Shown piece after piece: positions 4,622 through 48,412 of a stretch of 64,000 nucleotides of DNA; the first letter of the stretch is position 1; each line of letters opens with the position of its first letter. Under the pieces are notes generated by a model, which ran no database searches, was not told the origin of the DNA, and saw only the letters and a program-made list of their open reading frames with translations. This DNA is from an uncultured Chloroflexia bacterium (GTDB lineage Bacteria; Chloroflexota; Limnocylindria; Limnocylindrales; CSP1-4): the NCBI GenBank assembly GCA_963707215.1, contig CAVPPB010000002.1, forward strand, positions 320,001 to 384,000. The letters run 5' to 3'. A program made the translations under genes and the position numbers.

Positions 4622-4640
4622 GTCGGGTCCGGCCCTGGAC

Positions 4641-4838
4641 TCAGTCGCCGCGCGGGGAGCCGGCCGCGAGGACGTAGGCCATCAGGCTCATGGCGAGGCC
4701 GAGGGCGAGCAGCATCGTGAAGCCGGCGACGTCGACGACGCCCCCGAAGATGATGGGCACCGCCACGTAGACGACGGCGATGACGGCGAACACGACCCCC
4801 ACGAGGAGCGCGTTCCGAGGGTGGCGCAGGATGTGCAT
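4641..4838 (-). CDS. Small 2-TM protein, resembling the N-terminal half of cytochrome c oxidase subunit 4 (CtaF)
   Basis: MHILRHPRNALLVGVVFAVIAVVY...DVAGFTMLLALGLAMSLMAYVL. Start overlaps the ctaE stop (TGATG). Confidence 0.65.
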   Translation of the reverse strand: MHILRHPRNALLVGVVFAVIAVVYVAVPIIFGGVVDVAGFTMLLALGLAMSLMAYVLAAGSPRGD

Positions 4839-5488
4839 CAGGCGCCTCCGCTCGTGCCGGGCAGGATGTAGAGGATCGTGAACAGGGCGATCCAGACGAC
4901 GTCGACGAAGTGCCAGTAGAGGGACGTCGCCTCGACGGCATCGTGGTGGCGGGCTGAGAACTGGCCGGCCATGCCGCGGTAGAGCACGACGCTCAGCATG
5001 ACGACCCCGCCCAGGACGTGGGCGCCGTGGAAGCCGGTCAGCGTGTAGAAGGTGCTGCCGAACGCTCCCGAGTCGAGGGTCACGCCGTCGCTCCAGAGGA
5101 CGATGTAGTCGGTGAACTGGATGACGAGGAAGACGATGCCGAGGGCCAGCGTCACCGCGATGTTGCGGACGAACCCGGTCCGGTCGCCCTTGCGGATCGC
5201 CCAGACCGCGAACTGGCAGGTGAACGAGCTCAGGACCAGCAGGATCGTCGCCGGCCCGGCGAAGGGCAGGACGTGGAGGACGTCGGCGAACTCCGCCGGG
5301 GGCCACTCGGGGGCCGCCGTCCGGACGTTGAAGTAGGCCGCGAACAGGCCCGCGAAGAACATCACCTCGGAGGCGATGAACAGGATCATCCCCAGGATCG
5401 GGTTGCTGATCCCGCCGCGGGTGTCGTGGGCCAGGCCGCCGACCGGGCTGTGCTCGGTCGTGGTCAGGGCCTGCGGTTCGGCGGTCAC
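4838..5488 (-). CDS. ctaE: Cytochrome c oxidase subunit III
   Basis: FIASEVMFF, TGFHGAHV and YWHFVDVVW motifs. Confidence 0.95.
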   Translation of the reverse strand: MTAEPQALTTTEHSPVGGLAHDTRGGISNPILGMILFIASEVMFFAGLFAAYFNVRTAAPEWPPAEFADVLHVLPFAGPATILLVLSSFTCQFAVWAIRKGDRTGFVRNIAVTLALGIVFLVIQFTDYIVLWSDGVTLDSGAFGSTFYTLTGFHGAHVLGGVVMLSVVLYRGMAGQFSARHHDAVEATSLYWHFVDVVWIALFTILYILPGTSGGA

Positions 5489-5521
5489 GTCAGATGCTCC
5501 TCCGTCGGTCGTTCGCGCGGG

Positions 5522-7144: not shown

Positions 7145-7157
7145 CGCGGAGACTCCC

Positions 7158-8342
7158 TTACTCGACCGTCAGGGTGCCGGTCATGTTCGGGTGGACCGTG
7201 CAGACGAAGGTGTAGGTCCCGGCCGGCAGCGCCGGCACGGCGTAGTCGCGGGTGTCGACGCCGTTGAAGATCTCGCCCAGGAAGACCGTCGCACCGGATC
7301 CGTCCTTGATCTCGACGTTGTGGGGGACCCCGGCGTCGTTGTTGGCGAAGCGGATCGTGAACGGCTGGTCGGCGGAGGCCGTCAGCTGGGCGGTGTCGTA
7401 CTCGATGTTCTGGGCCGAGATCTCCAGTACGGCGCCGGAGGGGGCCTGGCTCGGCTGGGGCTCGCCGCTCGGCTGGGGCTGCGCGCTCGGCGCCGGCTCA
7501 CCGCTGGGCTGGGGCTCGGCGCTCGGCTGCGGCGGCGGGGCGTTGGCGATCTGGTCGGCCAGCCAGGCGTCGAACTCGGCCGGGGCGAGCGCCTTGACGG
7601 TGAACTGCATCGCCCAGTGCTGGGCGCCGCAGAGCTCGGCGCACTGGCCGCGGAACGTCTGGCCCGCGAAGTCGGCCGGGATGTCGAACTCGAAGGCGTT
7701 CTCCTTGCCGGGGATCACGTCGCGCTTGAAGAGGAACTGCGGGACGTAGAAGGCGTGGATCACGTCGGGGCTTCGGAGGGTCAGGTGGACCGTCTCGCCG
7801 GCCGGCACGACCATCTCCGGGGCGAACTGGGTGAACTCGACGGTCGAGCCGTCGGCGGTCAGGTACTCGAAGGTCCACTGGTAGCGGGCGCCGATGGCCC
7901 GGATCCGGACCTCGCCCTCATCTGCGGTGGCGGCGTTGACCGAGTTGAGGGTCTGCCAGCTGATGACGAAGAGCGCCGCCACGACGATCGTCGGGATGAC
8001 CGTCCAGATCACCTCCAGCAGGTTGTTCCCGTGGATCTGCGGCGGAAGCTCGCTGTCACCGGGCTTTCGCCGGTAGCGCACGACCGCCCAGATGATCGCC
8101 CCCTCGACCAGGAGGAAGACGATCGCGGCGATGATGAAGATGATCGTGTAGAGATCGTGGATGGCCTTGCCCTGCTCGGTCGTCGGCACCGGCGGGAAGA
8201 AGGACGCCCAGACGACCCCGAGCTGGGCCACGATGTCGTTGCCGCGAAGGGCCAGGATCCCCAGGAAGACCGCGACGGTGGCCACGGCCGCGACCGTCAG
8301 GATGACGGCGGGGGAGAGGCCAGGTCTGCGGGGCGATGTCAT
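7158..8342 (-). CDS. ctaC: Cytochrome c oxidase subunit II with an extra C-terminal cupredoxin domain
   Basis: DVIHAF and CAELCGAQHWAM CuA motif, a PQPSGE linker, then PHNV...CTVHPNM. Confidence 0.93.
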   Translation of the reverse strand: MTSPRRPGLSPAVILTVAAVATVAVFLGILALRGNDIVAQLGVVWASFFPPVPTTEQGKAIHDLYTIIFIIAAIVFLLVEGAIIWAVVRYRRKPGDSELPPQIHGNNLLEVIWTVIPTIVVAALFVISWQTLNSVNAATADEGEVRIRAIGARYQWTFEYLTADGSTVEFTQFAPEMVVPAGETVHLTLRSPDVIHAFYVPQFLFKRDVIPGKENAFEFDIPADFAGQTFRGQCAELCGAQHWAMQFTVKALAPAEFDAWLADQIANAPPPQPSAEPQPSGEPAPSAQPQPSGEPQPSQAPSGAVLEISAQNIEYDTAQLTASADQPFTIRFANNDAGVPHNVEIKDGSGATVFLGEIFNGVDTRDYAVPALPAGTYTFVCTVHPNMTGTLTVE

Positions 8343-8531
8343 CGACGATCCTCGAGCTGTCGGAGGGTGTCGACCAGCGCCCACGTGGAGGGGCCGCGGC
8401 CGACGGCGTACCTTGAGCCCGTCCGGGACGCGGGGCGGACCCGGCGCATGATAGCCGAACCGGTGGCGGTTTCGTCTACCGAGCAGGTAAGCATTCGATG
8501 GATGCTCCCGTTCCGTGGGACGATTGACGCC

Positions 8532-9677
8532 GTGAGCACCCGGGCCTCCCGATGGCCAGCCGCTCGGCCGCCCGCTTTCACCCGAGGACTGATCGAGCTC
8601 GTGCTCGCCTCGGCAGGCGTGCTGGCGTTCGTTCCGCCTGCGCTTGCCCACGGTGGGCCCAACCCCGACGAGCCGGGTCCGTTCTTCGTCCTGACCGACT
8701 GGTCGTTCGACCCGCTGACCCAGGGTCTGCTGCTCGGGCTCGCCGTCCTCTACCTCCTGGCGGTCCGGGCGGTCGACCGGGCCCATCCCGGCAACCCGGT
8801 CCCCCGCTCCCGGACGCTGGCCTGGCTGGGCGGCATCGTCGCCCTCGAGCTGGCCCTGGCCTCCGGGATCGAGCGCTACGACACGACGCTCTTCTCCGTG
8901 CACATGGTCCAGCACATCCTGCTGACCCTCGTGGCGGCCCCGCTGCTGGTCCTGGGGGCGCCGCTCACCCTCGTCCTGCGGGTCGCCTCACCCGCCGTCC
9001 GGCGACGCTGGATCCTGCCGATCCTCCACAGCCGGCTGGTCCGGTTCCTCGGCCACCCACTCGTGGCCTGGATCCTGTTCACGGCCGTCATGTGGGGGAG
9101 CCACCTGACGCCGCTCTTCGACGCAGCCCTCGAGAGCGAGCCGCTCCATCGGCTCGAGCACGCCCTCTACCTGTCGACGGCGATGCTCTTCTGGTGGCCG
9201 GTCGTCGGCATCGACCCGAGCCCGTACCGGATGTCGTACCCGGCCCGGATCCTCTACCTGCTGCTCCAGATGCCGACCAACACCTTCCTGGCCGTCCTCG
9301 TCTACTCGGCGACCTCGCCCTGGTACCCGCACTACGTCACGAGCGGGCGGACCTGGGGCCCGAGCCCGCTGCTCGACCAGCAGGCCGCCGGGGCGATCAT
9401 GTGGGTATTCGGCGACCTGGTCTTCCTCGTGGCCGGGCTTCTGATGGTCGCCGCCTGGTGGCGCGACGAGGAGCGGCGAGCGGCCAGGACCGAGGGCCGG
9501 CCGGACCCGGCCCTCCAGGCGATCCGGGAGCGCGAGGTCGCCCTGGCCGCTCGGCTGGCGGCGGAGCGGGAGGCCGCGACGAGCGGGACGCCCGATGGGC
9601 GCGATGCGGCCCCCGCTGGTGCCGCCGCCTCCGGGGCCGTTGCAGGTCAGGCCGAGGGGAGCGGGGCTCCGAGGTAG
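8532..9677 (+). CDS. ctaG: Cytochrome c oxidase assembly protein (caa3-type CtaG)
   Basis: LFSVHMVQH, LEHALY...FWW and DQQAAGAIMW motifs. Divergent from ctaC. Start is approximate. Confidence 0.88.
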   Translation: MSTRASRWPAARPPAFTRGLIELVLASAGVLAFVPPALAHGGPNPDEPGPFFVLTDWSFDPLTQGLLLGLAVLYLLAVRAVDRAHPGNPVPRSRTLAWLGGIVALELALASGIERYDTTLFSVHMVQHILLTLVAAPLLVLGAPLTLVLRVASPAVRRRWILPILHSRLVRFLGHPLVAWILFTAVMWGSHLTPLFDAALESEPLHRLEHALYLSTAMLFWWPVVGIDPSPYRMSYPARILYLLLQMPTNTFLAVLVYSATSPWYPHYVTSGRTWGPSPLLDQQAAGAIMWVFGDLVFLVAGLLMVAAWWRDEERRAARTEGRPDPALQAIREREVALAARLAAEREAATSGTPDGRDAAPAGAAASGAVAGQAEGSGAPR

Positions 9678-34657: not shown

Positions 34658-34780
34658 ATGGGCAGCCAGGAGGTTCGCCCGCCTGACGGCCGAGAGATGA
34701 CCTTGATCGAACCGCGACGCCCCGGCGTCGCCCCATTCGCCGCCATGCTCGTCGTCGCCCCTCGGGGGAGGGTCCGATGA
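34658..34780 (+). CDS. Possible leaderless 40-aa uORF coupled to the 34777 gene
   Basis: TATCAT-N6-ATG; stop overlaps the next start (ATGA). Confidence 0.3.
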   Translation: MGSQEVRPPDGREMTLIEPRRPGVAPFAAMLVVAPRGRVR

Positions 34781-35403
34781 GTCGACGCGGCCACCGGGGA
34801 CGTCCCGGACGCCGCTCCTCGGGCCCCGCCAGCAGCGCCGTCCGGGGCCCGGCGCCCGCGCCCGGCCCCAGTGCCCGACCCGAGGACGGCGAGGCGACCT
34901 CGGCGTCGGCTGCGCCCGCCCCAGGCCAGCGTGCGCTGCCTCCATCGGCCGCCCGTGCCGACGGTCCGGCCCGGGTTCCTGCGGACGGGCCGACCGGCAA
35001 CGGCAACCTCCCGCACCTGGAGCGACCCGAGCCGGCGGCCGACCGGGCGCTCGGCACGGCCGTGACCCCTCGACGCGAGCCTGACGGCGAACCCGGCGCC
35101 AACGGTGCGGATGGCCAGGGCCGGAGCGGCGCCACACTCGCCCAGCTCCGCAGGTTCATCAAGAGCCGCCCCTACATGCCGATGCACGAGCTTCGACGCC
35201 GCTTCAGCCTGGACTGCGAGGCTGACGAAGTGCACTCGATCGACATCGGCGGCCGGTACCTCTACGTCGGCCTTCCCGAGCGCGAGGCGGGCTTCGTCGG
35301 CGAGCTGATCCGGACCGGCGAGGTGGGCTACGAGCTCCTGTTGGACCCGACCTGCCCGCTCGTCATCGGCGTCTACGCGATGCGCCCCGTGGTGCGGTCC
35401 TGA
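34777..35403 (+). CDS. Hypothetical protein with a disordered N-terminus and a compact C-terminal domain
   Basis: RBS GGGGAGGG. C-terminal ~90 aa (LRRFIKSRPYMPMHELRRRF...GVYAMRP) look globular. Confidence 0.65.
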   Translation: MSRRGHRGRPGRRSSGPASSAVRGPAPAPGPSARPEDGEATSASAAPAPGQRALPPSAARADGPARVPADGPTGNGNLPHLERPEPAADRALGTAVTPRREPDGEPGANGADGQGRSGATLAQLRRFIKSRPYMPMHELRRRFSLDCEADEVHSIDIGGRYLYVGLPEREAGFVGELIRTGEVGYELLLDPTCPLVIGVYAMRPVVRS

Positions 35404-35416
35404 CCGCACCCTTCGC

Positions 35417-35432
35417 TGTCGGCTGGACGACA
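35417..35432. promoter_or_regulatory. Crp/Fnr (CooA-type) palindrome TGTCG-N6-CGACA
   Basis: TGTCG GCTGGA CGACA, 46 bp from the candidate -10 CAAGAT (35478) of the DVEGH peptide gene. Confidence 0.7.
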
Positions 35433-35530
35433 GGAGGGGCGTCGTCAGGGCGGCTGGACGCAGTGGGCGGCTGCCGCCAAGATGGAGCGGACGCGACGAG
35501 CGACCCGTCGCCGCAGTGGGGTTCGAGACC

Positions 35531-35731
35531 ATGACGAAGCAGCAGAAGCCGATCGAACCGGACGACGCGGCCCCCCGCGTCGCCGAGGACGAGGACGACG
35601 TCGAAGGGCACAACATGATGCCGCTCGACCCGTCGTCTGCTCGCCATCTGGCGGGCGCGCGCGAGCGCGAGATCCGCAGCGACCTCGCCCGGCGCCAGCG
35701 CGAGCATGAGGCTCGACCGCACAAGCGCTGA
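35531..35731 (+). CDS. Small DVEGH-motif peptide (66 aa)
   Basis: MTKQQKPIEPDDAAPRVAEDEDDVEGHNMMPLD...; followed by a terminator hairpin. Confidence 0.75.
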   Translation: MTKQQKPIEPDDAAPRVAEDEDDVEGHNMMPLDPSSARHLAGAREREIRSDLARRQREHEARPHKR

Positions 35732-35750
35732 CCGACCGCCGGCCACGACG

Positions 35751-35779
35751 AGCGGCGTCCCCCGGGGCGCCGCTTCTTC
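35751..35779 (+). terminator. Intrinsic terminator-like hairpin
   Basis: Stem AGCGGCGTCC/GGGCGCCGCT followed by TCTTC. Confidence 0.6.
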
Positions 35780-36047
35780 GTGTGCGTCACGCCCGACATG
35801 AGCTTGGTCCCGCCGGACCGGTCCGGGTCCCCGGCACGACTCGGGACCCGTTCGGTCGTGGCGCTCCGTCGGAGTCGCCTGGGCGACAGGACGGAGGGCG
35901 CCGGCGCGACGGCTCGGCGGCCGGCCCGTCGACAGCCCAGACGTCGTCCAGGGGATCGCCCCGGTGGGACGACCGGGGCACCATGAGGGCATCGATTGAA
36001 CGGACCCGAGCAGCACCAGCCGCGAGGGTCAGGAAGGGGACCGACCG

Positions 36048-36272
36048 ATGCTCGACACGAACAGCCGCTACATCGTCGCCAGCCGGACGATCGACGACCG
36101 CCTCGCCGAGGTCCGTCGAGCTCACGTCCTTCGCGAGGCCCGCGCCGGCGAGGACCAGCTCAAGGTCTCGACGCGGGTCCAGCGGGGGCCATCGCTTCTC
36201 GATCGCCTCGTCGCGGCGGTCGGCGCCCTTGGCGCCGGCGACCGGACCGCTCGCCCGGCAGGCGCTCGCTAG
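36048..36272 (+). CDS. Small hypothetical protein (74 aa)
   Basis: RBS AGGAAGGGG; MLDTNSRYIVASRTIDDRLAEVRRAHVLREAR... Confidence 0.6.
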   Translation: MLDTNSRYIVASRTIDDRLAEVRRAHVLREARAGEDQLKVSTRVQRGPSLLDRLVAAVGALGAGDRTARPAGAR

Positions 36273-36402
36273 GATCTCGCCGTCCTCGATCGTTCCCCTC
36301 CCGCCCGGAGTGCCGGGTTGTCACTCCCGGACCGGCCCGCGTAGCATGACTCGCGGGCCGGTCCGTTCGTTTGCCTCGGGCCCGGCGGCAGGAGAGGTTG
36401 GC

Positions 36403-37104
36403 ATGTCGGAGGACGACGGCTTCGCGCTGGAGGCGCTCCGCCGGTGCGCGCTCTTCGCCCAGGCCGACGAGGCGACGCTCCGTTCCTGCGCAGCCCAGCT
36501 GCGGACGAGACGCTTCCGCCGCGGCGAGACCATCTTCCACCAGGGCGATCCGGGAGACTCGCTGTTCATCATCCAGGACGGCTCGGTCAAGATCGTCCTC
36601 CCGTCACCCGAGGGCGAGGAGGCAGCCATCATCGCGACCCTGGGTCGCGGCGACTTCTTCGGTGAGCTGGCGCTCCTCGATGGGGCCTACCGCTCGGCCA
36701 CGGCCGTCGCGGTCGAGGCGTCCGAGACGCTGGTGCTGCGGCGAGAGCCGTTCGCCGCCCTCATCGACAGTGACCCCGGCCTGCGCCACGCGCTCCTGGC
36801 TGGTCTCGCAGCCGAACTGCGGCGCCTGACCGGTCACGTCGAGGAGCTCCACTTCCTGGACCTGCCAGGCCGGCTCGCGAGCCGGCTCGTCCGGATGGCC
36901 CAGGAACAGGACCCGGCTGCCAGCGGCGAGGTCGTGCTCGCCTGGCCGTTCACCCAGTCGGAGCTGGCCGCCATGATCGGGGGGACGCGGCAGACCGTGA
37001 ACCGGCTGCTCGCCGACCTGGTCGCCCAGGACCTCATCCGGTTCGAGCCCGACCGGCTGGTCATCACGGACCTCGAGCGCCTCTCCCGGGCGGCCGAGCG
37101 TTGA
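36403..37104 (+). CDS. Crp/Fnr family transcriptional regulator
   Basis: IFHQGD, FFGELALLDGAYRSATA cNMP motif and HTH TQSELAAMIGGTRQTVNR. Confidence 0.95.
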   Translation: MSEDDGFALEALRRCALFAQADEATLRSCAAQLRTRRFRRGETIFHQGDPGDSLFIIQDGSVKIVLPSPEGEEAAIIATLGRGDFFGELALLDGAYRSATAVAVEASETLVLRREPFAALIDSDPGLRHALLAGLAAELRRLTGHVEELHFLDLPGRLASRLVRMAQEQDPAASGEVVLAWPFTQSELAAMIGGTRQTVNRLLADLVAQDLIRFEPDRLVITDLERLSRAAER

Positions 37105-37132
37105 ACGCCGGTCGCGGGATCCGGCGCGGCCG

Positions 37133-37939
37133 ATGACGAGCCAGGGCCCGCCAGAAGCCTCCGACCTCGAGCGCGCCCTCGAGGCACTCCGGGCGGTGGC
37201 CCTCAGGGCCGAGGCTGCCCGGCGGCTCGAGCTCGGGAGCGGCGAGGCCGTCCTGCGGTCGGTCGTGGAGGCGGCCGTCTCCCTCTTCGACGCCGAGGCC
37301 GCGTCGATCGCGCTCTACGACCCGAGCGCGGATCGGCTGGTGTTCCTGGTCGCCGCCGGCGACCAGGGCCAGGGCGTCGTTGGCCTGTCGATCGGGCCCG
37401 ATCAGGGTCTCGTCGGCTACGTGTTCCAGACCGGTCAGCCGCTGGCCCTGTCGGATGTCCAGCGGGACCCCAGATTCGGGCGCTCCTTCGCCGAGAAGAC
37501 GGCCTACATCCCCCGGTCGATCGTCGCGGTGCCGCTCCTTGACGAGCAGGGCACCGTCGGGGTCCTCGAGGTCCTCGACAAGCGCGACGCGACGGCCTTC
37601 AGCCTGCGCGACATCGAGCTCACCTCGGTCTTCGCCCGCCAGGCGGCCGTCGCCATCCGCTCATCGCGGGTGGAGCGTGAGTCTGCCCTCCTCCTGGAGG
37701 AGGTGCTCCGGGCGACCCTCGGCGACCAGGTCGACGACCGGACCGTCGATGTCCTGGTGGCCGCGGCCGTCGATGATCTCGCCCGCGACGACACGGGAGC
37801 CCTCTGGGCGCTCGTCGAGCAGGTCGCCCGGGTCCGCCGGGCCGATCCGGATCAGCTCGCCCTCGTCACGGACCTGCTCGCCGTGCTGGCCGATCACGCC
37901 GGGCGCGGCCGAGCCGGTCGCCGGGCCCGTCGCGCCTGA
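37133..37939 (+). CDS. Stand-alone GAF domain protein
   Basis: AEAASIALYD...GLVGYVFQTG...DPRF...SIVAVPL...GVLEVLDK...FS..D. Confidence 0.88.
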   Translation: MTSQGPPEASDLERALEALRAVALRAEAARRLELGSGEAVLRSVVEAAVSLFDAEAASIALYDPSADRLVFLVAAGDQGQGVVGLSIGPDQGLVGYVFQTGQPLALSDVQRDPRFGRSFAEKTAYIPRSIVAVPLLDEQGTVGVLEVLDKRDATAFSLRDIELTSVFARQAAVAIRSSRVERESALLLEEVLRATLGDQVDDRTVDVLVAAAVDDLARDDTGALWALVEQVARVRRADPDQLALVTDLLAVLADHAGRGRAGRRARRA

Positions 37940-37945
37940 GCCGCG

Positions 37946-38783
37946 ATGACCGACGAGGCGCTCCTGCCCGCCTGGAGCGAGCCGTTCGCCGGCGAGCGAC
38001 GGACCAGGCTGAGCCACCTGCCGCCATTCGGACGGCTCGGGCGCGACTGGGCCTGGGGAGGGTCCGACGGCAGCGGCTGCACGGTCGCGATCATCGACTC
38101 GGGGATCGAGCCCGATCACCCCGACGTCGGCGGTCGGTTGCTCCGGAGCGTCGTCGTCGAGCTCGACGCGGAGGGCGAGCCGGTCGTCCGCGACGACCCC
38201 GAGGCTCGCGACGTCGTGGGACACGGCACGGCCTGCGCCGGGATCGTCCATGCGCTTGCCCCGGGGGCGGACATCCTGTCCATCCGCGTGCTCGGCCCCG
38301 ACAACCGCGGCAAGGGCGCGGTCTTCGCCGCCGGCCTGGACTGGGCGATCGAGGCCGGTGCCAGCGTCGTCAACCTGAGCCTGTCGTCGAAGAGCGAGGC
38401 CCTGTTCGGGGTCTTCCACGACCTCGCCGATCGGGCCTACTTTGCGAACACTCTGCTGGTCTCGGCCGCCAACAACTACCCGGGTGCGTCGTACCCGTCG
38501 CTCTTCGCCGCGGTGGTCTCGGTCGCCGCCCACGATCTCGCCGATCCGGCCGTCTACCTCTACAACCCGGATCCGCCCGTCGAGTTCGGAGCCCACGGCG
38601 TCGACGTCGAGGTCGCCTGGCGGGGCGGTACGCCGGATGGTCGCCACGGGCAACAGCTTCGCGGCCCCGCACATCGCCGGGTACGCGGCGCTGATCCGTT
38701 CCAAGCACCCGGAGGCGTCCCCGTTCGAGGTGAAGGCGATCCTCGCGGCGACCGCCGACAACGCCCGCGCCCCGGTCGGCTGA
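37946..38783 (+). CDS. S8 (subtilisin) serine peptidase with no signal peptide, frameshifted near 38630
   Basis: IIDSG and HGTACAG in one frame; GNSFAAPH in the shifted frame. Confidence 0.88.
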
Positions 38784-38937
38784 TCAGCACCTGACCGGTC
38801 GGCCGAGGCGGACCCGGGACACGCGTCGCCGCCCGCCGGATCCGACGCTGGGCCGGGGGCGGGCGGCGGTGCTGAGGAACGGGAGCCGGGTCGTGGGAGC
38901 GAGGCCCGGCGGGACCCGTCCGATCAGGTGGTCGGTC

Positions 38938-39423
38938 TCACTCCCCGCTGTTCCGGGCAGTCCGGAAGCCGTGGCCCTCGACGTCGTCGTCCTCGGTGGC
39001 CTTCGGCACTGCGCCCTCGCGCGGGATCCCCGCCTCGCGCGGCACCCCTGCCTCACGGGGCAATCCGGCCTCGCGGGGCTGGCCGAAGCCGTGGCCCTCG
39101 ACGTCGTCTTCGGTCGGGACGGCGCCCTCGCGCGGGATGCCCGCCTCGCGCGGGATGCCCGCCTCGCGCGGGATGCCCGCCTCGCGCGGCACCCCTGCCT
39201 CACGGGGCAATCCGGCCTCGCGGGGCTGGCCGAAGCCGTGGCCCTCGACGTCCTCGTCACCGGTGGCCCGGGGGACGGCGCCTTCGCGCGGGATCCCCGC
39301 CTCGCGCGGCACCCCGGCCTCACGGGGCAATCCGGCCTCGCGGGGCTGGCCGAAGCCGTGGCCCTCGACGTCCTCGTCGTCGGACTCCCGCGTACGCATG
39401 AAGCCCTCGTTCTCGTTGACCAT
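38938..39423 (-). CDS. Multi-cassette DVEGH/PREAG repeat protein (161 aa)
   Basis: RBS GGAGG. Four DVEGHGF motifs separate blocks of 4, 6 and 4 PRE(AG/GA)(L/V/I) hexapeptides. Confidence 0.8.
   Translation of the reverse strand: MVNENEGFMRTRESDDEDVEGHGFGQPREAGLPREAGVPREAGIPREGAVPRATGDEDVEGHGFGQPREAGLPREAGVPREAGIPREAGIPREAGIPREGAVPTEDDVEGHGFGQPREAGLPREAGVPREAGIPREGAVPKATEDDDVEGHGFRTARNSGE
38965..39375. repeat. Nested tandem repeat: 18-bp units inside three ~110-140-bp cassettes
   Basis: Recurring GAAGCCGTGGCCCTCGACGTC (4x) and CCCGCCTCGCGCGG-type units. Confidence 0.9.
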
Positions 39424-39529
39424 GTCGTTCCTCCGCTGGGAGCCGGTCGGCGGGCCGATCGCCCGCGGCTACCAGGGCAGACTACCGTGCGTGTCGAGAC
39501 TCGGCGTAGCGGCGTGGTGACCGCTCCGC

Positions 39530-39545
39530 TGTCGCCGAGCCGACA
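39530..39545. promoter_or_regulatory. Crp/Fnr (CooA-type) palindrome TGTCG-N6-CGACA
   Basis: TGTCG CCGAGC CGACA, 46 bp from the minus-strand -10 TAGTCT (39484-39479). Confidence 0.7.
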
Positions 39546-39565: not shown

Positions 39566-41233
39566 CTAGGGACGGCGGACGCCCGGTCCCCGATACAACT
39601 CCATGAGGCGGACCGACAGGCCAGGTCCGGCACCCACGAGCGCGAGGAAGTCGGAGCCGTCGAGGACGAGGAGTCGGCCCTCGGACAGGGCGGTCACGGT
39701 CGCGGTCCGGGGCGTCTCGCGGAGCAGGCCGAGCTCGCCGAAGACTCGGTCCGGGCCGAGCTCCCGGAGTCGCACCGGCTGCCCGTCGGCGTCCGCCTGG
39801 TCCACGGCGAACCGGCCATCCTCGATGACGTAGAAGCGGTCGGCCGGCTCGCCCTCCCGCACGACGACCTGGCCGGCCGCGACCGTCAGGGGCTCGAGGC
39901 GGGCGACGGCCGCCTCCATGGCCGCCGGGGGCACGCCTGCGAAGAGCGGAAGGCCGGCGACCCGCCGCAGCGTCGCCGACGGCCCATCCGGGGCCATACT
40001 CAGGTCAGGGCCGACGAGCGCGACGGCGACGACCGCGGCGACCACGACCGCCGCACCGGTCGCAGCGAGGACCGGCAGCGGCCCGAGGCTGTCGGCCAGC
40101 ACCGGGACCACCAGCGAGCCCGCGGCGTACGCCAGCGTGGAGACGGTCAGGATCCCGCCGAGGGCCCGTCCGCGGATGGCATCCGGGACGAGCCGTTGGA
40201 AGACGGTCGTCCCGACGACCTCGACGATCAGGCTGCCGGTCGCCGTCGCGGCCATCGCCACGAGGGCGAGCGCGACGATGTCGGCCGCCCCGAGTACGGC
40301 GAGCCCGATGCCCAGCAGCACCGCCCCACCGAGGAGCGGCCCGGCGAGCGACGGACGGAGCACGAGTGCGCCGCTGCCGACCGCGCCGATGAGCCCGCCC
40401 ACCCCGATCGCCGCATTGAGGTAGCCGGTCACCTCCTCGCCGGCCCCGAGCTGGTCGCTCGCCAGCAGGACCGTCAGGACGCCCAGCCCGCCGAACGCGA
40501 ACCCGCCCACGACGTCGAGCGTGCCCAGCCCGATCAAGGGGCGCAGGACGGGCCGGAGCAGCGAGGCAGCGGTCTCGGACGGGGCATCGTTCTTGGCTGG
40601 GGCGTCGCCACCGGGCGCGGGCGTCCCGGCGTCGTCGCGGCTGACCGTGCCCTTCGATGACGGCAGCGTCCAGAGGACGATCGCGACGATCCCGAACGTG
40701 ATCGCGTTGAGGATGAACGCCAGTCCCAGGTCGGCGACCGCCAGCAGCAGCCCGGCCAGGCCCGGTCCGACGATGAAGGCCAGGTTGTCGAGCCCGGCCC
40801 AGGCGCTGTTGGCCGGCCCGAGCTCGCGCTCGTCGCGGACCAGGGTCGGCAGGTAGGACCCGATGGCCGGCCCGAAGAACGCCGAGAAGCAGGTCGCCAC
40901 GATGGCCACGAGGACGATCCCGACGAGGGGACCGTCTGTGAGGACCAGCCAGGCCAGGACCACCATGCAGAGGCCCCGCGCGAGGTCGGTCGTGAAGAGC
41001 ACGAGCCGGCGGTCGAAGCGGTCGGCGGCCAGCCCGGCCGGTAGCGAGAGGACCACGTAGGGCAGCACCCGGGCGGCCCCGACGAGACCGAGAAGGAAGG
41101 CGTCGTTGCTCTCGCGGTAGACGACGACGAGCAGGGCGACGAGGTAGAGCCAGTCGCCGATCGACGAGACGAACTCGCCGGCCAGGAGCCGTGTCACCGG
41201 TCGGTTCGACAGCAGCGCGCGGTAGGTCGCCAT
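39566..41233 (-). CDS. MFS transporter fused to a C-terminal cyclic nucleotide-binding domain
   Basis: GLAADRFDRR motif A, about 12 TMs, then VVREGE...FGELGLLRETPRTATV. Confidence 0.9.
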   Translation of the reverse strand: MATYRALLSNRPVTRLLAGEFVSSIGDWLYLVALLVVVYRESNDAFLLGLVGAARVLPYVVLSLPAGLAADRFDRRLVLFTTDLARGLCMVVLAWLVLTDGPLVGIVLVAIVATCFSAFFGPAIGSYLPTLVRDERELGPANSAWAGLDNLAFIVGPGLAGLLLAVADLGLAFILNAITFGIVAIVLWTLPSSKGTVSRDDAGTPAPGGDAPAKNDAPSETAASLLRPVLRPLIGLGTLDVVGGFAFGGLGVLTVLLASDQLGAGEEVTGYLNAAIGVGGLIGAVGSGALVLRPSLAGPLLGGAVLLGIGLAVLGAADIVALALVAMAATATGSLIVEVVGTTVFQRLVPDAIRGRALGGILTVSTLAYAAGSLVVPVLADSLGPLPVLAATGAAVVVAAVVAVALVGPDLSMAPDGPSATLRRVAGLPLFAGVPPAAMEAAVARLEPLTVAAGQVVVREGEPADRFYVIEDGRFAVDQADADGQPVRLRELGPDRVFGELGLLRETPRTATVTALSEGRLLVLDGSDFLALVGAGPGLSVRLMELYRGPGVRRP

Positions 41234-41433
41234 CGCGCCCATCGCTACGGCGCCCACGTCCGCGTGCTCGACCCCTCCGCCATCGGGGGAGTGTACGGCT
41301 CGTCCCGCCGCTCGCGCCGGTCGTCGGGGTGCGGACAGGACCATCGAAGGGTGGTCTGCGCTCCGGGCGGCGGGCAGGCTAGCGAGGTCGTCGGCGCGAC
41401 CGCGTCTGGGTCAAGGAAAGCGGGAGGCTCCCC

Positions 41434-44050
41434 ATCAACGTTCGCCGAGCGCTGCTCGCAGCGCTGCTCCTCGTCGTCGTGTCCACGGGAGGGACCTCGG
41501 CCGCCGAGCCGGTCCCGTCACCCGCAGCATCCAGCCCACCCGTCGAACCGAGCGTGTCCCCGCTCCCGCCCGACCCTGTCGTCGCCGCTCCCGAGGTCGA
41601 GCAAGTCCCGGCAGCCGCCGGACCCGTCGGCGCGCCCGACGTCGCAGCCGAGCCACTCTCGGCCAGGGGCCGGTACATCGTCCTGCTTCGCGACGGCTCG
41701 ACCTCCGCGCTGGCGAGCTCGCTCGGTCGTCGCTGGGGGTTCCAGCCCGATCGCGTGTTCAGCCGGGCGGTCCGGGGCTTCTCGGCGACGCTGCCGGACG
41801 CGGTCCGCGACCGCCTCGCCCGCGACCCGGACGTCGCAGCGGTGATCCCCGACGAGGTCATCGAGCTCGCCTGGGTGCGCCCGACCGGGATCCGCAGGGT
41901 CAACGCCCCGAGCTCGCCGCTCGCCGACATCGACGCCATCGACGACGCCCGGGTCGATGCCGACATCGCGATCGTGGATACCGGGATCGATCGGACCCAC
42001 CCTGACCTCGACGTCGTCGGCGGCATCAACTGCTCGACGAGCGATCCGAACGCCTGGCGTGACGTGCACGGCCACGGGACCCACGTCGCCGGCACGGCCG
42101 CGGCCATCGACAAGTCGAGCGGGGTCGTCGGCGTCGCCCCCGGCGCCCGGCTGTGGGCGGTCAAGATCCTCAACGACCAGGGCGACGGCCTGCTGTCCTG
42201 GTACGTCTGCGGGCTCGACTGGATCGCCGCCCAGCGCGACCCGTCCGACCCTGACCGGCCGCTCTTCGAAGCGGTCAACATGAGCGTCACCAAATCGGGG
42301 AGCGACGACCAGGCCTGCGGGGACCGCAACGGCGACATCCTCCACCAGGCCATCTGCCGGCTCGTCGGCAGCGGGGTCACCGTCGTCGCGGCGGCCGCCA
42401 ACGACAGCAAGGACGCCGCACTGCGCGTGCCGGCCTCGTACGACGAGGTCATCACGGTCTCGGCGCTGGCCGACATGGACGGGCTCCCCGGCGGGAAGGG
42501 GCCCCAGCTCTGCGGCTCGTACGACGCCGACGACACGTTCGCCGACTTCTCGAACTACGGCGCCGACGTCGACATCATCGCGCCCGGCAAGTGCATCTGG
42601 TCGACCCTCCGGGGGAACCGCTACGGCTACTCGTCGGGGACATCGATGGCGGCACCGCACGTCACCGGCGCCGTCGCCCTGTACAAGGCGTCCCGACCGG
42701 AGGCCACTCCGGCCGAGATCAAGGAGGCCCTGCGGTTCCTGGGGACCTCGGATTGGAAGACCTGGACGGATCCGGATCCCTGGCACGAGCCGCTCCTCGA
42801 CGTGTCACGGCTCGGCCCCCTGGGATCGTTCTCGATGGCTGTCCTGCCCGAGTCCTCCGGCACCGGCGGTGATGACAGCGCCGAGACGACGGTCACCGCC
42901 ACGGTCGCCCTCGTCCGATCGACCACCTTCTTCGAGCCGGTGTCCCTGGCGGCCGAGACGCCCGACGGCATCACCGCGACATTCGACAAGCCGCGCCTCA
43001 TGGGCTTCGGGGTCACCGGGACGACCATGACCCTGACCGCCGCTCCCGGCATCGACCCCGCCGAGATCCCGGTGACGATCCGGGCGACCTACAAGGACAT
43101 CGTCCGGACCACGACCCTGACCCTCGACGTCGAGCCAGCCGCGGTCCGCCTCGCCGGGGCCGACCGCTACGCGACCGCCGCGGCGATCAGCGCGGCCTCC
43201 TTCGGCCCGGGGGTCGCCGTCGCCTACGTGGCCACCGGGGCGAACTTCCCCGACGCCCTCGCCGGCAGCGCCGCCGCCGGCAGCGCCGGGGCCCCGGTCC
43301 TGCTCGTCACGAGGGACACCATCCCGACCGCCACCGCGACCGAGCTCGGCCGCCTCAAGCCGGGTCGGATCGTCGTCCTCGGCGGCGCCTCCGTCGTGAC
43401 CGACGCGGTCAAGGCGGCCCTCGCGCGGTACACCGCCGGCTCGGTCAGCCGCCTCGCCGGGGCCGACCGCTACGCGACCGCCGCGGCGATCAGCGCGGCC
43501 TCCTTCGGCCCGGGGGTCGCCGTCGCCTACGTGGCCACCGGGGCGAACTTCCCCGACGCCCTCGCCGGCAGCGCCGCCGCCGGCAGCGCCGGGGCCCCGG
43601 TCCTGCTCGTCACGAGGGACACCATCCCGACCGCCACCGCGACCGAGCTCGGCCGCCTCAAGCCCGCTCGGATCGTCGTCCTCGGCGGCGCCTCCGTCGT
43701 GACCGACGCGGTCAAGGCGGCCCTCGCGCGGTACACCGCCGGCTCGGTCAGCCGCCTCGCCGGGGCCGACCGCTACGCGACCGCCGCGGCGATCAGCGCG
43801 GCCTCCTTCGGCCCGGGGGTCGCCGTCGCCTACGTGGCCACCGGGGCGAACTTCCCCGACGCCCTCGCCGGCAGCGCCGCCGCCGGCAGCGCCGGGGCCC
43901 CGGTCCTGCTCGTCACGAGGGACACCATCCCGACCGCCACCGCGACCGAGCTCGGCCGCCTCAAGCCCGCTCGGATCGTCGTCCTCGGCGGCGACCGGCG
44001 TCGTGACCGACGCGGTCAAGGCGGCCCTCGCGCGGTACACCAGGCCGTAG
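41434..44050 (+). CDS. Secreted S8 peptidase with an I9 propeptide and 3 CW_binding_2 repeats (probable ATC start; 3' indel near 43995)
   Basis: IVDTG, HGHGTHVAG and SGTSMAAPHV. Signal peptide NVRRALLAALLLVVV follows GGGAGG. Confidence 0.88.
43147..44041 (+). repeat. Three near-identical 303-bp tandem repeats encoding CW_binding_2
   Basis: Units start at 43147, 43450 and 43753 and are almost base-identical. Confidence 0.92.
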
Positions 44051-44065
44051 GCCTGGCTGGACCCC

Positions 44066-44719
44066 TCAGCCGCCCTCCCCGGGCATCGCCAGGGCGGCAG
44101 TCGGCAGGACCGTGCCCTCGAGCGAGAGCAGCTCTCGCTTGAGCTCGAGGAGCTCCTCGCGGGTCCCGAACCAGGACCCGCCGTAGCCACCGAGCGTCCC
44201 ATCGCCGGCGATGACCCGGTGGCAGGGCACGATCAGGCCGATCGGGTTCCGGCCGACGGCCCCGCCGGTCGCCCGGGCGGCCCCGTGTGCACCGATCGCC
44301 GTCGCGACCCGTCCATAGCTGGTCACGCGACCCCACGGGACGCTCCGGACGGCCTCGAGCACCCGGCGGTCCCAGGCGGATAGCCCCCGCAGGTCGATGG
44401 GCAACGACAGCCTCTCGGGCTCCCCTGCCCAGAAGCGGTCCAGGTGTCGCGCGAGCCGGTCGATCAGGGCTCGTCGGGCCGCTCCGGCACGACGGCCTGC
44501 GATCGGATCACGGTGCGTCCGCCGCACCAGGTGAGATGCGAAGGCATCGTCGGTCGATCGGAGCTCGAGCGCCACGACGGCCTGCGTGGTGACGGCCAAC
44601 CGCACGGGGCCCAGGGGACCGTCGAGGACCGCGATCGCGGTCGTCGCCGCCCCGGCGGGCGCTTCCTGCGCACGGTCGACCAGCGCGGCCGTCGGGGGCT
44701 CGGTCTCGTCTCCCGGCAT
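44066..44719 (-). CDS. ogt: Methylated-DNA-protein-cysteine methyltransferase
   Basis: [16 protein letters not shown] and LL..EG motifs. Confidence 0.9.
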
Positions 44720-44754
44720 GTCGCAAGTCTTGCCGTTCAGGACGGCCGACTGCT

Positions 44755-44771
44755 ATACTCGGGGGGAGTAT
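44755..44771. promoter_or_regulatory. CsoR/RcnR-type operator overlapping the copA -10 and RBS
   Basis: ATACT-C-GGGGGG-AGTAT, an inverted repeat flanking a G-tract. Confidence 0.65.
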
Positions 44772-44773
44772 CG

Positions 44774-47497
44774 ATGGACATCACCACCGCGTCCCCGACC
44801 CCGCCAGCCGGCAGCGCACCGCTGGAAGTCCAGCTGCCCGTGGCCGGGATGACCTGCGCCTCGTGCGTCAACCGCATCGAGCGGTTCCTCAACAAGACCC
44901 CGGGGGTCGAGGAGGCGACGGTCAACCTCGCCACCGAGATGGCGACCATCCGGTACCTGCCGAACCTCGCGGGCCGCAGCGACCTCGTCGGCGCGATCGA
45001 GGCGGCTGGCTACGAGGTCAAGCCGTCGGCCCTCGTGGAGCCGGCCGCGGACGACGGGGCATCCGCCGCCGACGCGCTCGAGGCGGCCCAGGCGGCCGAG
45101 GAGGTCGAACGGGCGCGCGAGCTGCGCCTGATGCTGACCCAGTCGATCGTCGCCGTCGCCGTCGCCCTGGTCGCCATGGTCCTCATGTTCTGGCCGCAGA
45201 CGGTCGTCCCGATGGAGGAGCTCAACAAGCTCATCCTCTGGCCCGCCACGATCGTCCAGTTCTGGGCCGGCGGCCGTTTCTACCGGGCGGCCTGGCGAGC
45301 GCTCCGTCACGGCGGAGCCACGATGGACACCCTGGTCGTAGCCGGGACCAGCGCCGCCTGGGTCTACTCGGTCTTCGTCACCATGTGGCCCGAGGTCATC
45401 CACGCGGCGGGCCTGCACCCCGAGACCTACTTCGAGTCCTCGGCGATCATCATCGGCCTCGTCCTGCTGGGTCGCTGGCTCGAGCTGCGCGCCCGAGGCC
45501 AGACGACCGGCGCGATCCGACGCCTGATGGGTCTCCAGGCGACGACCGCCCGGCTCGTCCGCGGCGACGAAGAGGTCGACGTCCCACTCGCCCAGGTCGT
45601 GACCGGCGACCTGCTGCGGGTCCGCCCCGGCGACAAGGTCCCGGTGGACGGGGTGCTCGTCGAGGGCGGGTCGGCCGTCGACGAGTCGATGCTCACGGGC
45701 GAGGCCATCCCGGTGTCCAAGGCCATCGGCGACGAGGTCATCGGGGCGACCATCAACACGACCGGGTCGTTCGTCATGCGGGCGACCCGGGTCGGTCGCG
45801 AGACCGCCCTCGCCCGGATCGTCGAGATGGTCCAGCGTGCGCAGGGCTCCAAGGCCCCCATCCAGCGCCTCGCAGATCGGATCTCGGCCTGGTTCGTCCC
45901 GTTCGTCCTCATCGTCGGCGCCATCACCTTCGCCATCTGGTTCCTGGGTGGGCCGGAGCCCCGCCTGACCCTGGCGCTCACCGCCTTCATCGCGGTCGTC
46001 GTCATCGCCTGTCCGTGTGCCATGGGCCTCGCCACGCCCACCGCGATCATGGTCGGGACCGGCAAGGGGGCCGAGGCCGGCGTCCTGGTCCGTGGGGGCG
46101 AGGCGCTCGAGATCGCGCACAAGGTCGACGCCGTCCTGTTCGACAAGACCGGGACCCTGACCCTGGGCCGCCCGGCCGTGGCCGGGGTCGTCCCGGCCGA
46201 TGGCTGGTCGGCGGGCGAGATCCTGGACCTCGCCGCGTCGGCCGAGAAGGGCAGCGAGCACCCGCTGGCGGAAGCGATCGTCGCCAGAGCGCAGCAGGAT
46301 GAGCTCGGCTTCCGGGCCGTCGACGGGTTCGAGGCCGTTGCCGGTCACGGGGTGGTGGCGACGGTCGACGGCCGGCGCGTCCTGGTCGGCAACGCCCGGC
46401 TGCTTGCCGAGCACGCGGTCGCGATCGAGCGGCTGGAGGATGTCGCGGCGGCCGAGGCCGCGAACGGGCGCACCCCGGTCTTCGTCGCCGTCGACGGCCA
46501 GCCGGCCGGGGTCGTCACGATCGCCGATCCGGTCAAGGCCGAGTCCGCGCAGGCGATCCGGCAGCTCGCCGGCATGGCCGTCGACGCCTGGATGATCACC
46601 GGCGACCGGCGGACGACGGCCGAGGCGGTCGCCCGCCAGGTCGGCATCCCCTCGGACCGGGTGCTCGCGGAGGTCCTGCCCGGCGACAAGGCCGCAGCGG
46701 TCGAGCGTCTCCAGGCCGAGGGCCGGACGGTCGCGATGGTCGGTGACGGGATCAACGACGCGCCCGCGCTCGCGCAGGCCGACCTCGGCATCGCCATCGG
46801 CACCGGGGCGGACGTCGCGATCGAGGCGTCGGATATCACGCTCGTCGGCGGCGATCCCCGTGGGGTCGTCTCGGGCCTGGTCCTCTCCCGGCGGACGATG
46901 CGGGTGATCCGCCAGAACCTCTTCTGGGCGTTCGCCTACAACGTCCTGCTCATCCCGGTGGCGATGGGCGCCCTGTACCCGACCTTCGGGATCACCCTCG
47001 CGCCGGCGATGGCGGCCGGAGCGATGGCCCTCTCGTCGGTGTCGGTGGTCACGAACTCGCTCCGGCTGCGCTCGGTCCGCATCCGCCCGGACGAGGTCCG
47101 CGCGGAGGGGCGGGGCCTGGGCGCGCGGATCGCGGACGCATCCTTCCTGGCGGTCATCGCCCTCCTCGCCGGCGGGCTGGTGGCCGGGGTCATCGCTGCC
47201 GACCGGGCCGTCGCGGCCGGGTCGACCCAGGTCGACCTGGTGGCCCGGGACGTCGCCTTCTCGACCGACGAGATCCGGGTCCGGGCCGGCGAGCTGTTCA
47301 CCGTGACGCTGGTCAACGAGGACCCGGTCCTCCATGACTGGATGGTCGAGGGTGTTGCCAACGTCGAGGTCATCGCCAGGCCCGGCGCCACGGCGAGCGA
47401 CCGGTTCGTCATCGACCAGCCCGGGACCTACGAGTTCATCTGCTCGTACGAGGGCCACGCCGAGGCCGGCATGGTCGGGATGCTCATCGTCGAGTAG
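44774..47497 (+). CDS. copA: Cu(I)-exporting P1B-1 ATPase with a C-terminal cupredoxin domain
   Basis: GMTCASC, TGE, CPC, DKTGT, GDGIND, YN and MALSS. Tail HDW...[11 protein letters not shown]. Confidence 0.93.
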
Positions 47498-47586: not shown

Positions 47587-48300
47587 CTACTGGGCCCGAG
47601 GCTCCCCGGGGCGCCCGACCATGTCGTCGGCGGCGTCCTTCGGAGCCAGCGGCCCCGCCGGCCCGCCATCTCGGTCGCGGACGGCGGGGTTGGCCGAGTC
47701 CGGGGCCTGCACGGCCGTCCGGCTGACCGCCTCGTCCGGGGTGGCATCGCGGACCATCGGATCGACCCAGGCCGGAGCCGGCGGTGTCTTCGCCAGGTCG
47801 CCGGCCCGGATCTCCGCGGCCAAGCCCGGCGCCACGGCGGGGGCGGGGATCGCCCGCGACCCCGCGAGGTCTCCGCCCGCGATCTCGGCGGCAAGGCCGG
47901 GTGCCATGTCAGGGACCGGGATGGACGCGGCCTGCGTCTGGCTACCGGCGGTCGGGGCTGTCAGATCAGAGACCAGCATCGAGGTCGTCGCTGCCCCAAC
48001 AACGATGACACCGGCGATCCCCGCCGCCAGGAGCTTGCGCTGCAGGTCGCGGGCCGCCTCGGCGTTCGGCAGCCGCAGCGAGAGGGCGTGGCCCTCGACG
48101 TCGTCCTCATCGAACAGTCGCAGGGTGACGGTCGTGGACAGGCCGTGGCCCTCGACGTCGGCGCTCTCGTCTGCCGCGATCCGCATCTTGTTGCCGGCAT
48201 AACCGGTCGCGAGGAGATCACGGAGCTGCCCGCTGATCGCCCCCTCGATCGCCCCTTCGACCTCTGTCCCGTCCGCGAGCTTCAGTCGCAGCGCGCTCAT
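47587..48300 (-). CDS. DVEGH-motif single-TM protein
   Basis: SADVEGHGL and EDDVEGHAL, hydrophobic LLAAGIAGVIVVGAA, and two APGLAAEIxxGDLA repeats. SD GAGGTGG. Confidence 0.7.
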   Translation of the reverse strand: MSALRLKLADGTEVEGAIEGAISGQLRDLLATGYAGNKMRIAADESADVEGHGLSTTVTLRLFDEDDVEGHALSLRLPNAEAARDLQRKLLAAGIAGVIVVGAATTSMLVSDLTAPTAGSQTQAASIPVPDMAPGLAAEIAGGDLAGSRAIPAPAVAPGLAAEIRAGDLAKTPPAPAWVDPMVRDATPDEAVSRTAVQAPDSANPAVRDRDGGPAGPLAPKDAADDMVGRPGEPRAQ

Positions 48301-48396
48301 CTCCAGCCACCTCATGGTCGGGTCGCCTGTCGTCCCGTGCCCCAGCACTCTAGGCGCGACGCAGGCCTACGACCAGTCCTCCAGCGACATGGCGCC

Positions 48397-48412
48397 TGTC
48401 GTCTGGCTGACA
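48397..48412. promoter_or_regulatory. Crp/Fnr (CooA-type) palindrome TGTCG-N6-TGACA
   Basis: TGTCG TCTGGC TGACA, 45 bp from the minus-strand -10 TAGAGT (48352-48347). Confidence 0.7.

Follow-up and report, generated by a model that had tools for sequence, protein, structure and literature searches.

The 64,000-nt stretch analysed here (the window; 73% G+C, with genes called from third-position G+C) lies on contig CAVPPB010000002.1 of an uncultured Limnocylindria bacterium. On its forward strand, at 36403-37104, it encodes a Crp-family regulator of 233 amino acids, whose translation contains GGTRQTVNRLLADL at the recognition helix. Three exact copies of the palindrome TGTCG-N6-YGACA are found in it, all of them intergenic. 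Operator 1 (TGTCGGCTGGACGACA, 35417-35432, forward strand) begins 14 bp past the stop codon of the gene at 34777-35403 and faces the gene that starts at 35531. Operator 2 (TGTCGCCGAGCCGACA, 39530-39545, reverse strand; one-strand reading TGTCGGCTCGGCGACA) is located between the stop codon of a gene for a transporter of the major facilitator superfamily (MFS) and the start of the gene at 39423. Operator 3 (TGTCGTCTGGCTGACA, 48397-48412, reverse strand), an exact match to the Y-variant of the pattern, faces the gene at 48315.

The proteins encoded by the three genes have a motif in common. Target gene 1 (35531-35731, forward strand; 66 amino acids, P0003) has one DDVEGH motif and a conserved basic tail. 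Target gene 2 (38938-39423, reverse strand; 161 amino acids, P0001) encodes a repeat protein with four D-V-E-G-H motifs, and target gene 3 (47587-48315, reverse strand; 242 amino acids, P0002) a protein in which two such motifs are combined with a single predicted membrane helix and a tail rich in Pro and Ala. A six-frame scan of the window yielded seven copies of D-V-E-G-H, all within these three proteins; three looser hits elsewhere were antisense to called genes or out of frame with them. Since every site precedes a D-V-E-G-H gene, what the operator tags is a family of proteins rather than just three promoters. This is a point that the original prediction, a note drawn from the sequence of the window, had missed: the three targets belong to a single D-[VT]-E-G-H family, and it is this family that defines the regulon.

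The same note had listed the three exact sites, and they were confirmed, with 5 strand matches against 0.27 expected; none of 100 dinucleotide shuffles of the window gave as many as 5. It had also paired them with the -10-like hexamers CAAGAT (35478-35483, forward strand), TAGTCT (39484 to 39479, reverse strand) and TAGAGT (48352 to 48347, reverse strand), and these do lie 46, 46 and 45 bp from the near edges of operators 1, 2 and 3 (by coordinate difference), a spacing that turned out to be beyond chance in the larger sample described below. For target gene 1, the putative promoter (35455-35483, forward strand) would consist of a weak -35 TGGACG, a 17-nt spacer and CAAGAT. For target gene 3, TAGAGT overlaps the GTG at 48348, so that the ATG at 48315 is the likelier start. 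When the three promoters were aligned, a further GTC was found to be common to all of them, 9 to 11 nt beyond the palindrome: at 35441-35443 on the forward strand for operator 1, and on the reverse strand at 39519-39521 and 48386-48388 (gac on the forward strand) for operators 2 and 3. We call this the core of a third half-site. Operator 3 was also considered as the operator of a DUF1028 gene (48498), a possibility that was rejected since GTC and -10 are on the opposite side.

Palindromes, promoters and the D[VT]EGH family

For comparison, the best 80 of 547 confirmed Crp relatives (60-81% identity) were taken with about 20 kb around each crp gene, 1,181,852 bases in all. Most of the 80 loci come from metagenome-assembled genomes assigned to Chloroflexota/Limnocylindria/Limnocylindrales; other taxa are given for five (L029, L031, L045, L047, L072). 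The pattern TGTCR-N6-YGACA was found 86 times in these loci, against 5.0±2.2 (maximum 11) in 30 dinucleotide shuffles, which is a 17-fold enrichment, and at least one exact site was present in 59 of the 80. The same arms separated by N4, N5, N7 or N8 gave 2, 4, 5 and 2 matches, and three composition-matched palindromes gave 1, 3 and 1. TGTGA-N6-TCACA, TGTGR-N6-YCACA and the FNR box had 0 matches each in these 1.18 Mb of orthologous loci.

Together with the window's 3, the collection amounts to 89 sites. For 58 of these, the first [DE][VT]EGH motif of an open reading frame (ORF) with high third-position G+C (GC3) follows at a distance of less than 500 nt. The number of D[VT]EGH ORFs varies with the filter (94, 97 or 82), and 77 have at least 450 nt of upstream sequence. 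For these 77, the region from 60 to 450 nt before the first motif contained an exact site in 48 cases, a one-mismatch site in 23 and a two-mismatch site in 6. The proportion with at most one mismatch (71/77) compares with about 5.5% of random regions; in random 390-nt regions of the same loci, 3.0% had an exact site and 2.5% a one-mismatch site. The two-mismatch cases were inspected by eye, and four of the six come from a subclade whose regulators read G-S-R-Q-S-V-N-R in the recognition helix; the element there is TGT(G/A)(C/T)-N6-TGACA, and three of these four have GTC at its normal distance.

The 58 sites oriented towards a D[VT]EGH gene were then used to describe the promoter. Position 5 of the palindrome is G in 53/58 and position 12 is C in 40/58 (within the searched pattern), and the flanks are without consensus. 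A GTC at +9 to +11 is present in 54/58 sites, compared to 10/58 in the opposite orientation. T is found at position 38 in 46/58 and at position 39 in 35/58, and otherwise there is little of a -35. A hexamer [TC]ANNNT starts 44 to 47 nt past the palindrome in 55/58 sites, compared to 2/58 when the sites are read the other way round, with 3.5% as background; for the stricter TANNNT starting at 45 or 46 nt, the count is 31/58 with a background of 0.12%. The TT is 17 to 18 nt from the -10, as in a sigma-70-type promoter. The composite module of palindrome, third GTC half-site, weak -35 and -10 is a fixed architecture. If transcription starts 6 to 7 nt past the hexamer, the centre of the palindrome would be near -65 and the GTC near -48, and a second dimer placed on the third half-site would be centred near -42. 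Mismatches were tallied in 23 one-mismatch sites with the full architecture. The changes fall on half-site position 1 (12 cases) or 5 (8 cases), and on positions 2 to 4 in 3 cases, which makes G-T-C the constrained core; the third half-site keeps this core too.

A logo built from 257 instances of the motif in 97 ORFs reads [RKA]-A-x-[DGE]-[DE]-[DE]-D-[VT]-E-G-H-[GAS]-[MGFLI]. The proteins come in three forms: small ones, each with a single motif and a basic tail that is conserved (...MLPIDPSSARHLAGARE...RPHKR); repeat proteins with 2 to 12 motifs, whose intervening cassettes vary widely between genomes; and membrane-anchored proteins with a predicted strand after each motif. None of the three target proteins of the window belongs to a Pfam or NCBIfam family. 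The homologue search with P0003 returned 10 relatives, all unnamed or 'hypothetical', and DDVEGH was invariant in the alignment. A P0003-type profile matched 136 representative clusters among 1.84 billion proteins (E<=0.001), many of them with 2 to 5 matched stretches. The search with P0001 returned nothing at E<=0.001. P0002 could be aligned with five relatives, in which both motifs are kept, and an AlphaFold2 model made from this six-sequence alignment had a mean predicted local distance difference test score of 38.7. Two look-ups in the Atlas yielded, at 0.81-0.90, one cluster from Actinomycetota and otherwise just unnamed ones from Chloroflexota. Target gene 2 contains nested tandem repeats, with units of 18 nt (PREAG-type hexapeptides) and of 120 nt, the latter 97% identical; this suggests a recent expansion. 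The pattern [DE]x-D-x-E-G resembles metal loops of the DxDxDG type. A literature search on the motif strings gave nothing relevant among the best 20 of 99 full-text matches. Searches on Limnocylindria Crp, on the operator strings and on Chloroflexi Crp regulons returned no description of this regulon. An anti-phage defence system was considered and rejected, PADLOC having returned only generic matches to cyclic-nucleotide-binding domains and subtilases.

The regulator and its conserved neighbourhood

The protein encoded at 36403-37104 has the two domains of the CRP/FNR superfamily: cNMP_binding (PF00027) at residues 36-124, with 96 bits for a cut-off of 27.5, and HTH_Crp_2 (PF13545) at residues 156-229, with 61.4 bits for a cut-off of 27. 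The 5-N6-5 palindrome of the superfamily is matched by N6 being the sole enriched spacer. The NCBIfam CRP equivalog NF008732 scored 94.9 bits, well below its cut-off of 266. The recognition helix had been read as TRQTVNR in the original prediction, and the translation confirmed it; the Arg-Glu...Arg triad of CRP proper is absent, the helix being R-Q-T-V-N-R. The phosphate-binding cassette is kept, since FFGELALLDGAYRSA aligns with MFGELSIFDPGPRTS of the Mycobacterium tuberculosis CRP (FGEL...R[ST]). A Pfam scan of 41 ORFs of the window revealed no adenylate cyclase. From these features, the regulator appears to be a cyclic-nucleotide CRP scaffold with CooA-like DNA specificity, and a member of neither narrow family.

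The helix could be read in 78 orthologues (three split matches were left out), and 77 of them have [TS]RQ[ST]VN[RK]. The sole exception is locus L042, where Pro replaces Gln (R-P). At the standard place, 9604-9619, upstream of its D[VT]EGH gene, this locus has the element AGTAA-N6-TCACA, compared to TGTCG-N6-CGACA in the others. The promoter (9604-9669) is otherwise in order, with GTC at +9 to +11 and CAATCT at +45; the C at half-site position 4 is gone from both arms.

Three genes accompany crp in most loci. In the window, crp is directly followed on the forward strand by a gene for a GAF-domain protein (37133-37939, P0016; Pfam GAF) and by one for a small subtilase of family S8 without a signal peptide (37946-38794; Pfam Peptidase_S8, partial). 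The MFS transporter with a C-terminal cyclic-nucleotide-binding domain is encoded on the reverse strand at 39566-41344 (Pfam MFS_1, MFS_3 and cNMP_binding). The GAF protein was found in 69, the subtilase in 67 and the MFS transporter in 58 of the 80 loci, and of these conserved neighbours Crp alone has a DNA-binding domain. Two layouts are frequent. In 38/80 loci, crp, GAF and S8 are tightly packed with D[VT]EGH genes flanking them, as in the window. In 24/80 loci, an exact site separates the crp stop codon from a D[VT]EGH gene, which leads straight on to GAF, S8 and often MFS; five more have the same order without an exact site, so that this layout accounts for 24 to 29 of the 80. A site with at most one mismatch was found within 260 nt upstream of crp itself in 19/78 loci, all of them from the subclade with S-V-N-[KR] in the helix. 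At 13 of these 19 crp promoters, a TTGAC box follows the palindrome within 30 nt, and in 8 of them within 2 to 6 nt.

The best solved matches of the GAF protein were 4mcw (9e-20), the cGMP-specific phosphodiesterase 5w10 (2e-18) and adenylate cyclase 1ykd; the C-terminal 90 residues had no match. Since these matches are of the cyclic-nucleotide type, the cluster would contain, with Crp and the MFS transporter, three candidate cyclic-nucleotide sensors. As for the subtilase, its frame shifts near 38625-38635, and the catalytic Ser motif GNSFAAPH is in another frame (ORF 38442-38783). Its orthologues are intact proteins of 270 to 290 amino acids, without signal peptide or prodomain. The frame change in the window is either an assembly error or the mark of a pseudogene.

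Two weaker copies of the palindrome had originally been listed ahead of a small gene at 36048-36272 (74 amino acids, P0004). They exist, one with 1 mismatch (AGTCGCCTGGGCGACA, 35873-35888) and one with 2 (GGCCGGCCCGTCGACA, 35919-35934), and yet they are not above chance: the window has 4 matches at up to one mismatch for 4.35 expected, and 52 at up to two for 55.2 expected. Neither copy has the extra GTC or a -10 at the fixed distance, in either orientation, and both were rejected as operators on these grounds. In L005, the closest locus, their positional counterpart has 2 mismatches. P0004 had a tblastn match in 1/80 loci only. It resembles a second small protein that recurs beside exact sites and is often divergent from crp (in L010, L022, L041, L044, L046, L054, L055, L059, L063, L067, L071, L072, L075 and L079), with an N-terminal helix ..H..LA....ERL..A......AR and a C-terminal hydrophobic segment. 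Because of this resemblance, there may be a weak real site before the 36048 gene.

Other features of the region were recorded along the way. Between 35300 and 39700, the sole sigma-70-like match, TTGTCA-18-TAGCAT, is located at 36318-36347, immediately ahead of crp. A perfect 14-bp inverted repeat (36328-36365; folding free energy -34.6 kcal/mol, z -5.05) encloses its -10, TAGCAT, in the loop and is followed by UUCGUUUG; L005 shares this arrangement (36318-36378 in the window). The repeat could be the terminator of the 36048 gene, the operator for another factor, or both. The gene at 34777-35403, which precedes operator 1, encodes a 208-amino-acid protein of no known family; its C-terminal 90 to 160 residues are kept at the same place in 26/80 loci, and its true start may lie downstream since the N-terminal half is rich in Arg, Pro, Gly and Ala. 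A haem-copper oxidase operon (3485-8915) includes subunit II (7158-8915) and a protein (3485-4621) with C-terminal cupredoxin-like domains. A cupredoxin/plastocyanin-like domain is also found at the C terminus of a P-type heavy-metal ATPase (44444-47497), which is near crp in 10/80 loci. Two proteins (121-1065 and 41479-44142) have triple CWB2 cell-wall-binding repeats, and one of the two is a fusion with an S8 subtilase of the secreted type, which has an I9 inhibitor prodomain and is unrelated to the small subtilase of the crp cluster.

Proposed binding and mode of action

Our best explanation of these data, in which as a whole we have good confidence, is that Crp operators set in fixed modules drive D[VT]EGH genes. 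Having Arg-Gln for Arg-Glu in its recognition helix, each Crp subunit would read TGTCG, not TGTGA. The dimer, with a cyclic nucleotide as its probable ligand, would bind the palindrome, recruit RNA polymerase and turn the genes on; it would probably be assisted by another dimer or subunit, bound weakly at the lone third half-site (t)GTC(g) 7 bp past the palindrome. The genes so controlled would encode the undescribed [DE][DE]-D-[VT]-E-G-H proteins and, in about one third of the related genomes, this promoter would also head the D[VT]EGH-GAF-subtilase-MFS operon.

We take it as almost certain that the palindrome works as a cis-element in this regulon. Other origins were weighed: a palindrome arisen by chance, a mobile element or repeat, or a hairpin formed in the RNA, for instance a terminator behind crp. 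In their favour, many sites are only 12 to 50 bp past the crp stop codon, the arms could pair as a 5-bp stem, and window counts at one or two mismatches are at chance level. Such an origin is hardly credible in view of the 17-fold enrichment of exact sites with one spacer only and their strict orientation and distance to the -10. The arms are invariant, and one-mismatch sites carry changes that are not compensated in the opposite arm. A copied repeat is further disfavoured because the flanks are not conserved; and an RNA family or terminator was rejected, there being no Rfam match in the window and no T-run after the palindromes. As to the protein that reads the element, the original prediction of a shared operator of the local Crp, with an RQ helix fitting TGTCG, is supported by the enrichment confined to N6, the adjacency to crp, the helix found in 77/78 orthologues and the literature. 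The local Crp very probably binds the palindrome: the only enriched geometry is the 5-N6-5 of CRP/FNR proteins, Crp is the sole DNA-binding protein among the conserved neighbours, sites abut crp in many loci, the residue that selects base 4 is Gln, as in CooA, whose site has the same consensus, and in L042 the orthologue without Gln goes with an element that lacks that very base. The competing idea, that the operator is bound by a different factor encoded elsewhere and that nearness to crp reflects shared function only, has to its credit that about 20 kb was covered in each genome and that the window's crp is without a site of its own. Set against the former evidence, we regard it as very unlikely.

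The direction of control is a less settled matter, and activation of the D[VT]EGH promoters is favoured with modest confidence, most of the remaining probability going to repression or dual control. A poor -35 is the usual mark of activator dependence, and a strong site wholly upstream of such a -35 points to activation. The class-I-like activation proposed originally is this same idea, with an upstream site that would be centred at about -65, and it is too simple as a single class I site given the third oriented GTC half-site in 54/58 promoters; a tandem arrangement is likelier than plain class I because this conserved GTC abuts the -35. With the same operator and the same Crp, occupancy of palindrome and half-site could conversely shut the promoter, and release could open it. 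Three observations fit this: the third half-site abuts the -35; at 13 crp promoters the palindrome is at most 30 nt upstream of a consensus-like TTGAC (2 to 6 nt in 8 of them), which looks more like autorepression; and at M. tuberculosis whiB1 a promoter-proximal CRP site represses while the distal one activates (PMC2844151). At the D[VT]EGH promoters themselves, however, the strong symmetric site is wholly upstream of the -35, the -35 is poor, with the TT at 38-39 as its sole kept part, and the proximal element is half a site only. Repression or dual control at these promoters is accordingly held to be improbable, if by no means negligible.

Several points weigh against the reading of Crp as an activator that binds these operators. 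The window's own crp has no upstream site. All promoter positions rest on -10 and -35 look-alikes, and a centre near -65 is not among the classic class I positions of Escherichia coli. In the collection, 7/89 sites are inside long high-GC3 frames, by a crude test; since site 3 of the window is among these 7, the test over-calls. The covariation in L042 is a single case, noticed post hoc, and its candidate element has 3 mismatches from the pattern. With about 20 kb covered per crp, another part of the genome may encode a paralogue that has this helix. A third half-site so close to the -35 would be just as suitable for repression, the role described for the CRP2 site of whiB1 (PMC2844151). Finally, the literature precedent is inexact because the third contact residue is Arg or Lys here, not Thr.

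A more speculative proposal, to which we give little credence for the moment, is that the operator is the switch of a self-contained module gated by a cyclic nucleotide, with three predicted sensors (Crp, GAF and MFS). The D[VT]EGH proteins would be multi-cassette precursors, cut at their motifs by the co-transcribed subtilase, and the MFS transporter would export the products. The hypervariable, tandemly expanding cassettes, bounded by the invariant acidic D-[VT]-E-G-H as a recognition motif, may then represent a new class of ribosomal peptides or signals; there is a formal likeness to cyanobactin precursors with their PatA/PatG sites. An alternative of the same standing is that [DE]x-D-x-E-G-H is a DxDxDG-like metal loop, in which case the proteins may be disordered metal buffers induced by a cyclic nucleotide. 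The operon order D[VT]EGH-GAF-S8-MFS (24-29/80), the invariant motif with its variable cassettes, the 120-nt repeats and the absence of a known family are consistent with such a module, which may so far have been found only in Limnocylindria.

What is new here is a class-wide, dedicated Crp regulon with an undescribed target family and GAF, subtilase and transporter partners; the CRP scaffold and the CooA-like specificity are known in kind. It provides a concrete regulator-operator pair for Limnocylindria, an abundant uncultured Chloroflexota class of soil and fresh water for which a literature search found no regulatory study. It would also be a natural example of one residue of the CRP helix setting one base of the half-site, a rule otherwise drawn from CooA and from engineered CRP, and seen here in a protein that still resembles a cyclic-nucleotide sensor. 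The D-[VT]-E-G-H family is singled out as the main output of that signal, which makes the function of the whole module accessible to experiment.

Comparison with known CRP/FNR systems

The closest parallel for the operator is with CooA, a CRP/FNR-family activator that senses CO in Rhodospirillum rubrum and Desulfovibrio. Its consensus, given as TGTCGGCNNGCCGACA in Table 10 of Rodionov et al. (PMC545781), where TGTCGGCTAGCCGACA is one of the listed sites, is almost the same as operators 1 and 2. The window Crp differs from CooA in that it keeps the cyclic-nucleotide cassette and aligns best with cAMP-binding CRPs, not with a haem sensor. The regulon differs too: it consists of D[VT]EGH-motif proteins, and the Pfam scan of the genes called in the window showed no CO dehydrogenase or coo genes.

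An engineered CRP provides experimental evidence for the pairing of Gln181 with TGTCG. According to Desai et al. (PMC2677863), Arg180, Glu181 and Arg185 of E. coli CRP contact bases, and the variant CRP7 (Gln181/Thr185), modelled on CooA, activates an operator, Om7, in which positions 7 and 8 are C,G in place of G,A. This CooA-modelled variant and the window Crp both have Gln at the position of CRP 181. The match is not complete: CRP7 is a designed double mutant in an E. coli scaffold, described there as active at low expression only, and has the CooA-derived Thr at 185, whereas the natural protein has Arg or Lys as third contact residue.

Among solved structures, the closest relatives of the window Crp are the actinobacterial CRPs, namely M. 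tuberculosis Rv3676 (PDB 3d0s, 3mzh and 3i54) and Corynebacterium glutamicum GlxR (4byy and 3r6s), with E values of about 1e-37 to 1e-36 for matches along the entire protein. The domain order is the same and the context of the helix is nearly identical (SRETVNKALADF compared to TRQTVNRLLADL). SRETVNK of the M. tuberculosis CRP aligns with TRQTVNR, so that Glu has become Gln in the recognition helix; unlike for these relatives, no TGTGA-N6-TCACA is found in the 1.18 Mb around the window-Crp orthologues. The promoter also finds its nearest counterpart there. At M. tuberculosis whiB1, the distal CRP site (-58.5) activates and the proximal CRP2 (-37.5) represses at high occupancy (PMC2844151). Both systems have a tandem pair of a strong distal and a weaker proximal element. 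The spacing differs: the two centres would be about 23 bp apart in the present case (near -65 and -42/-48), compared to 21 bp at whiB1.

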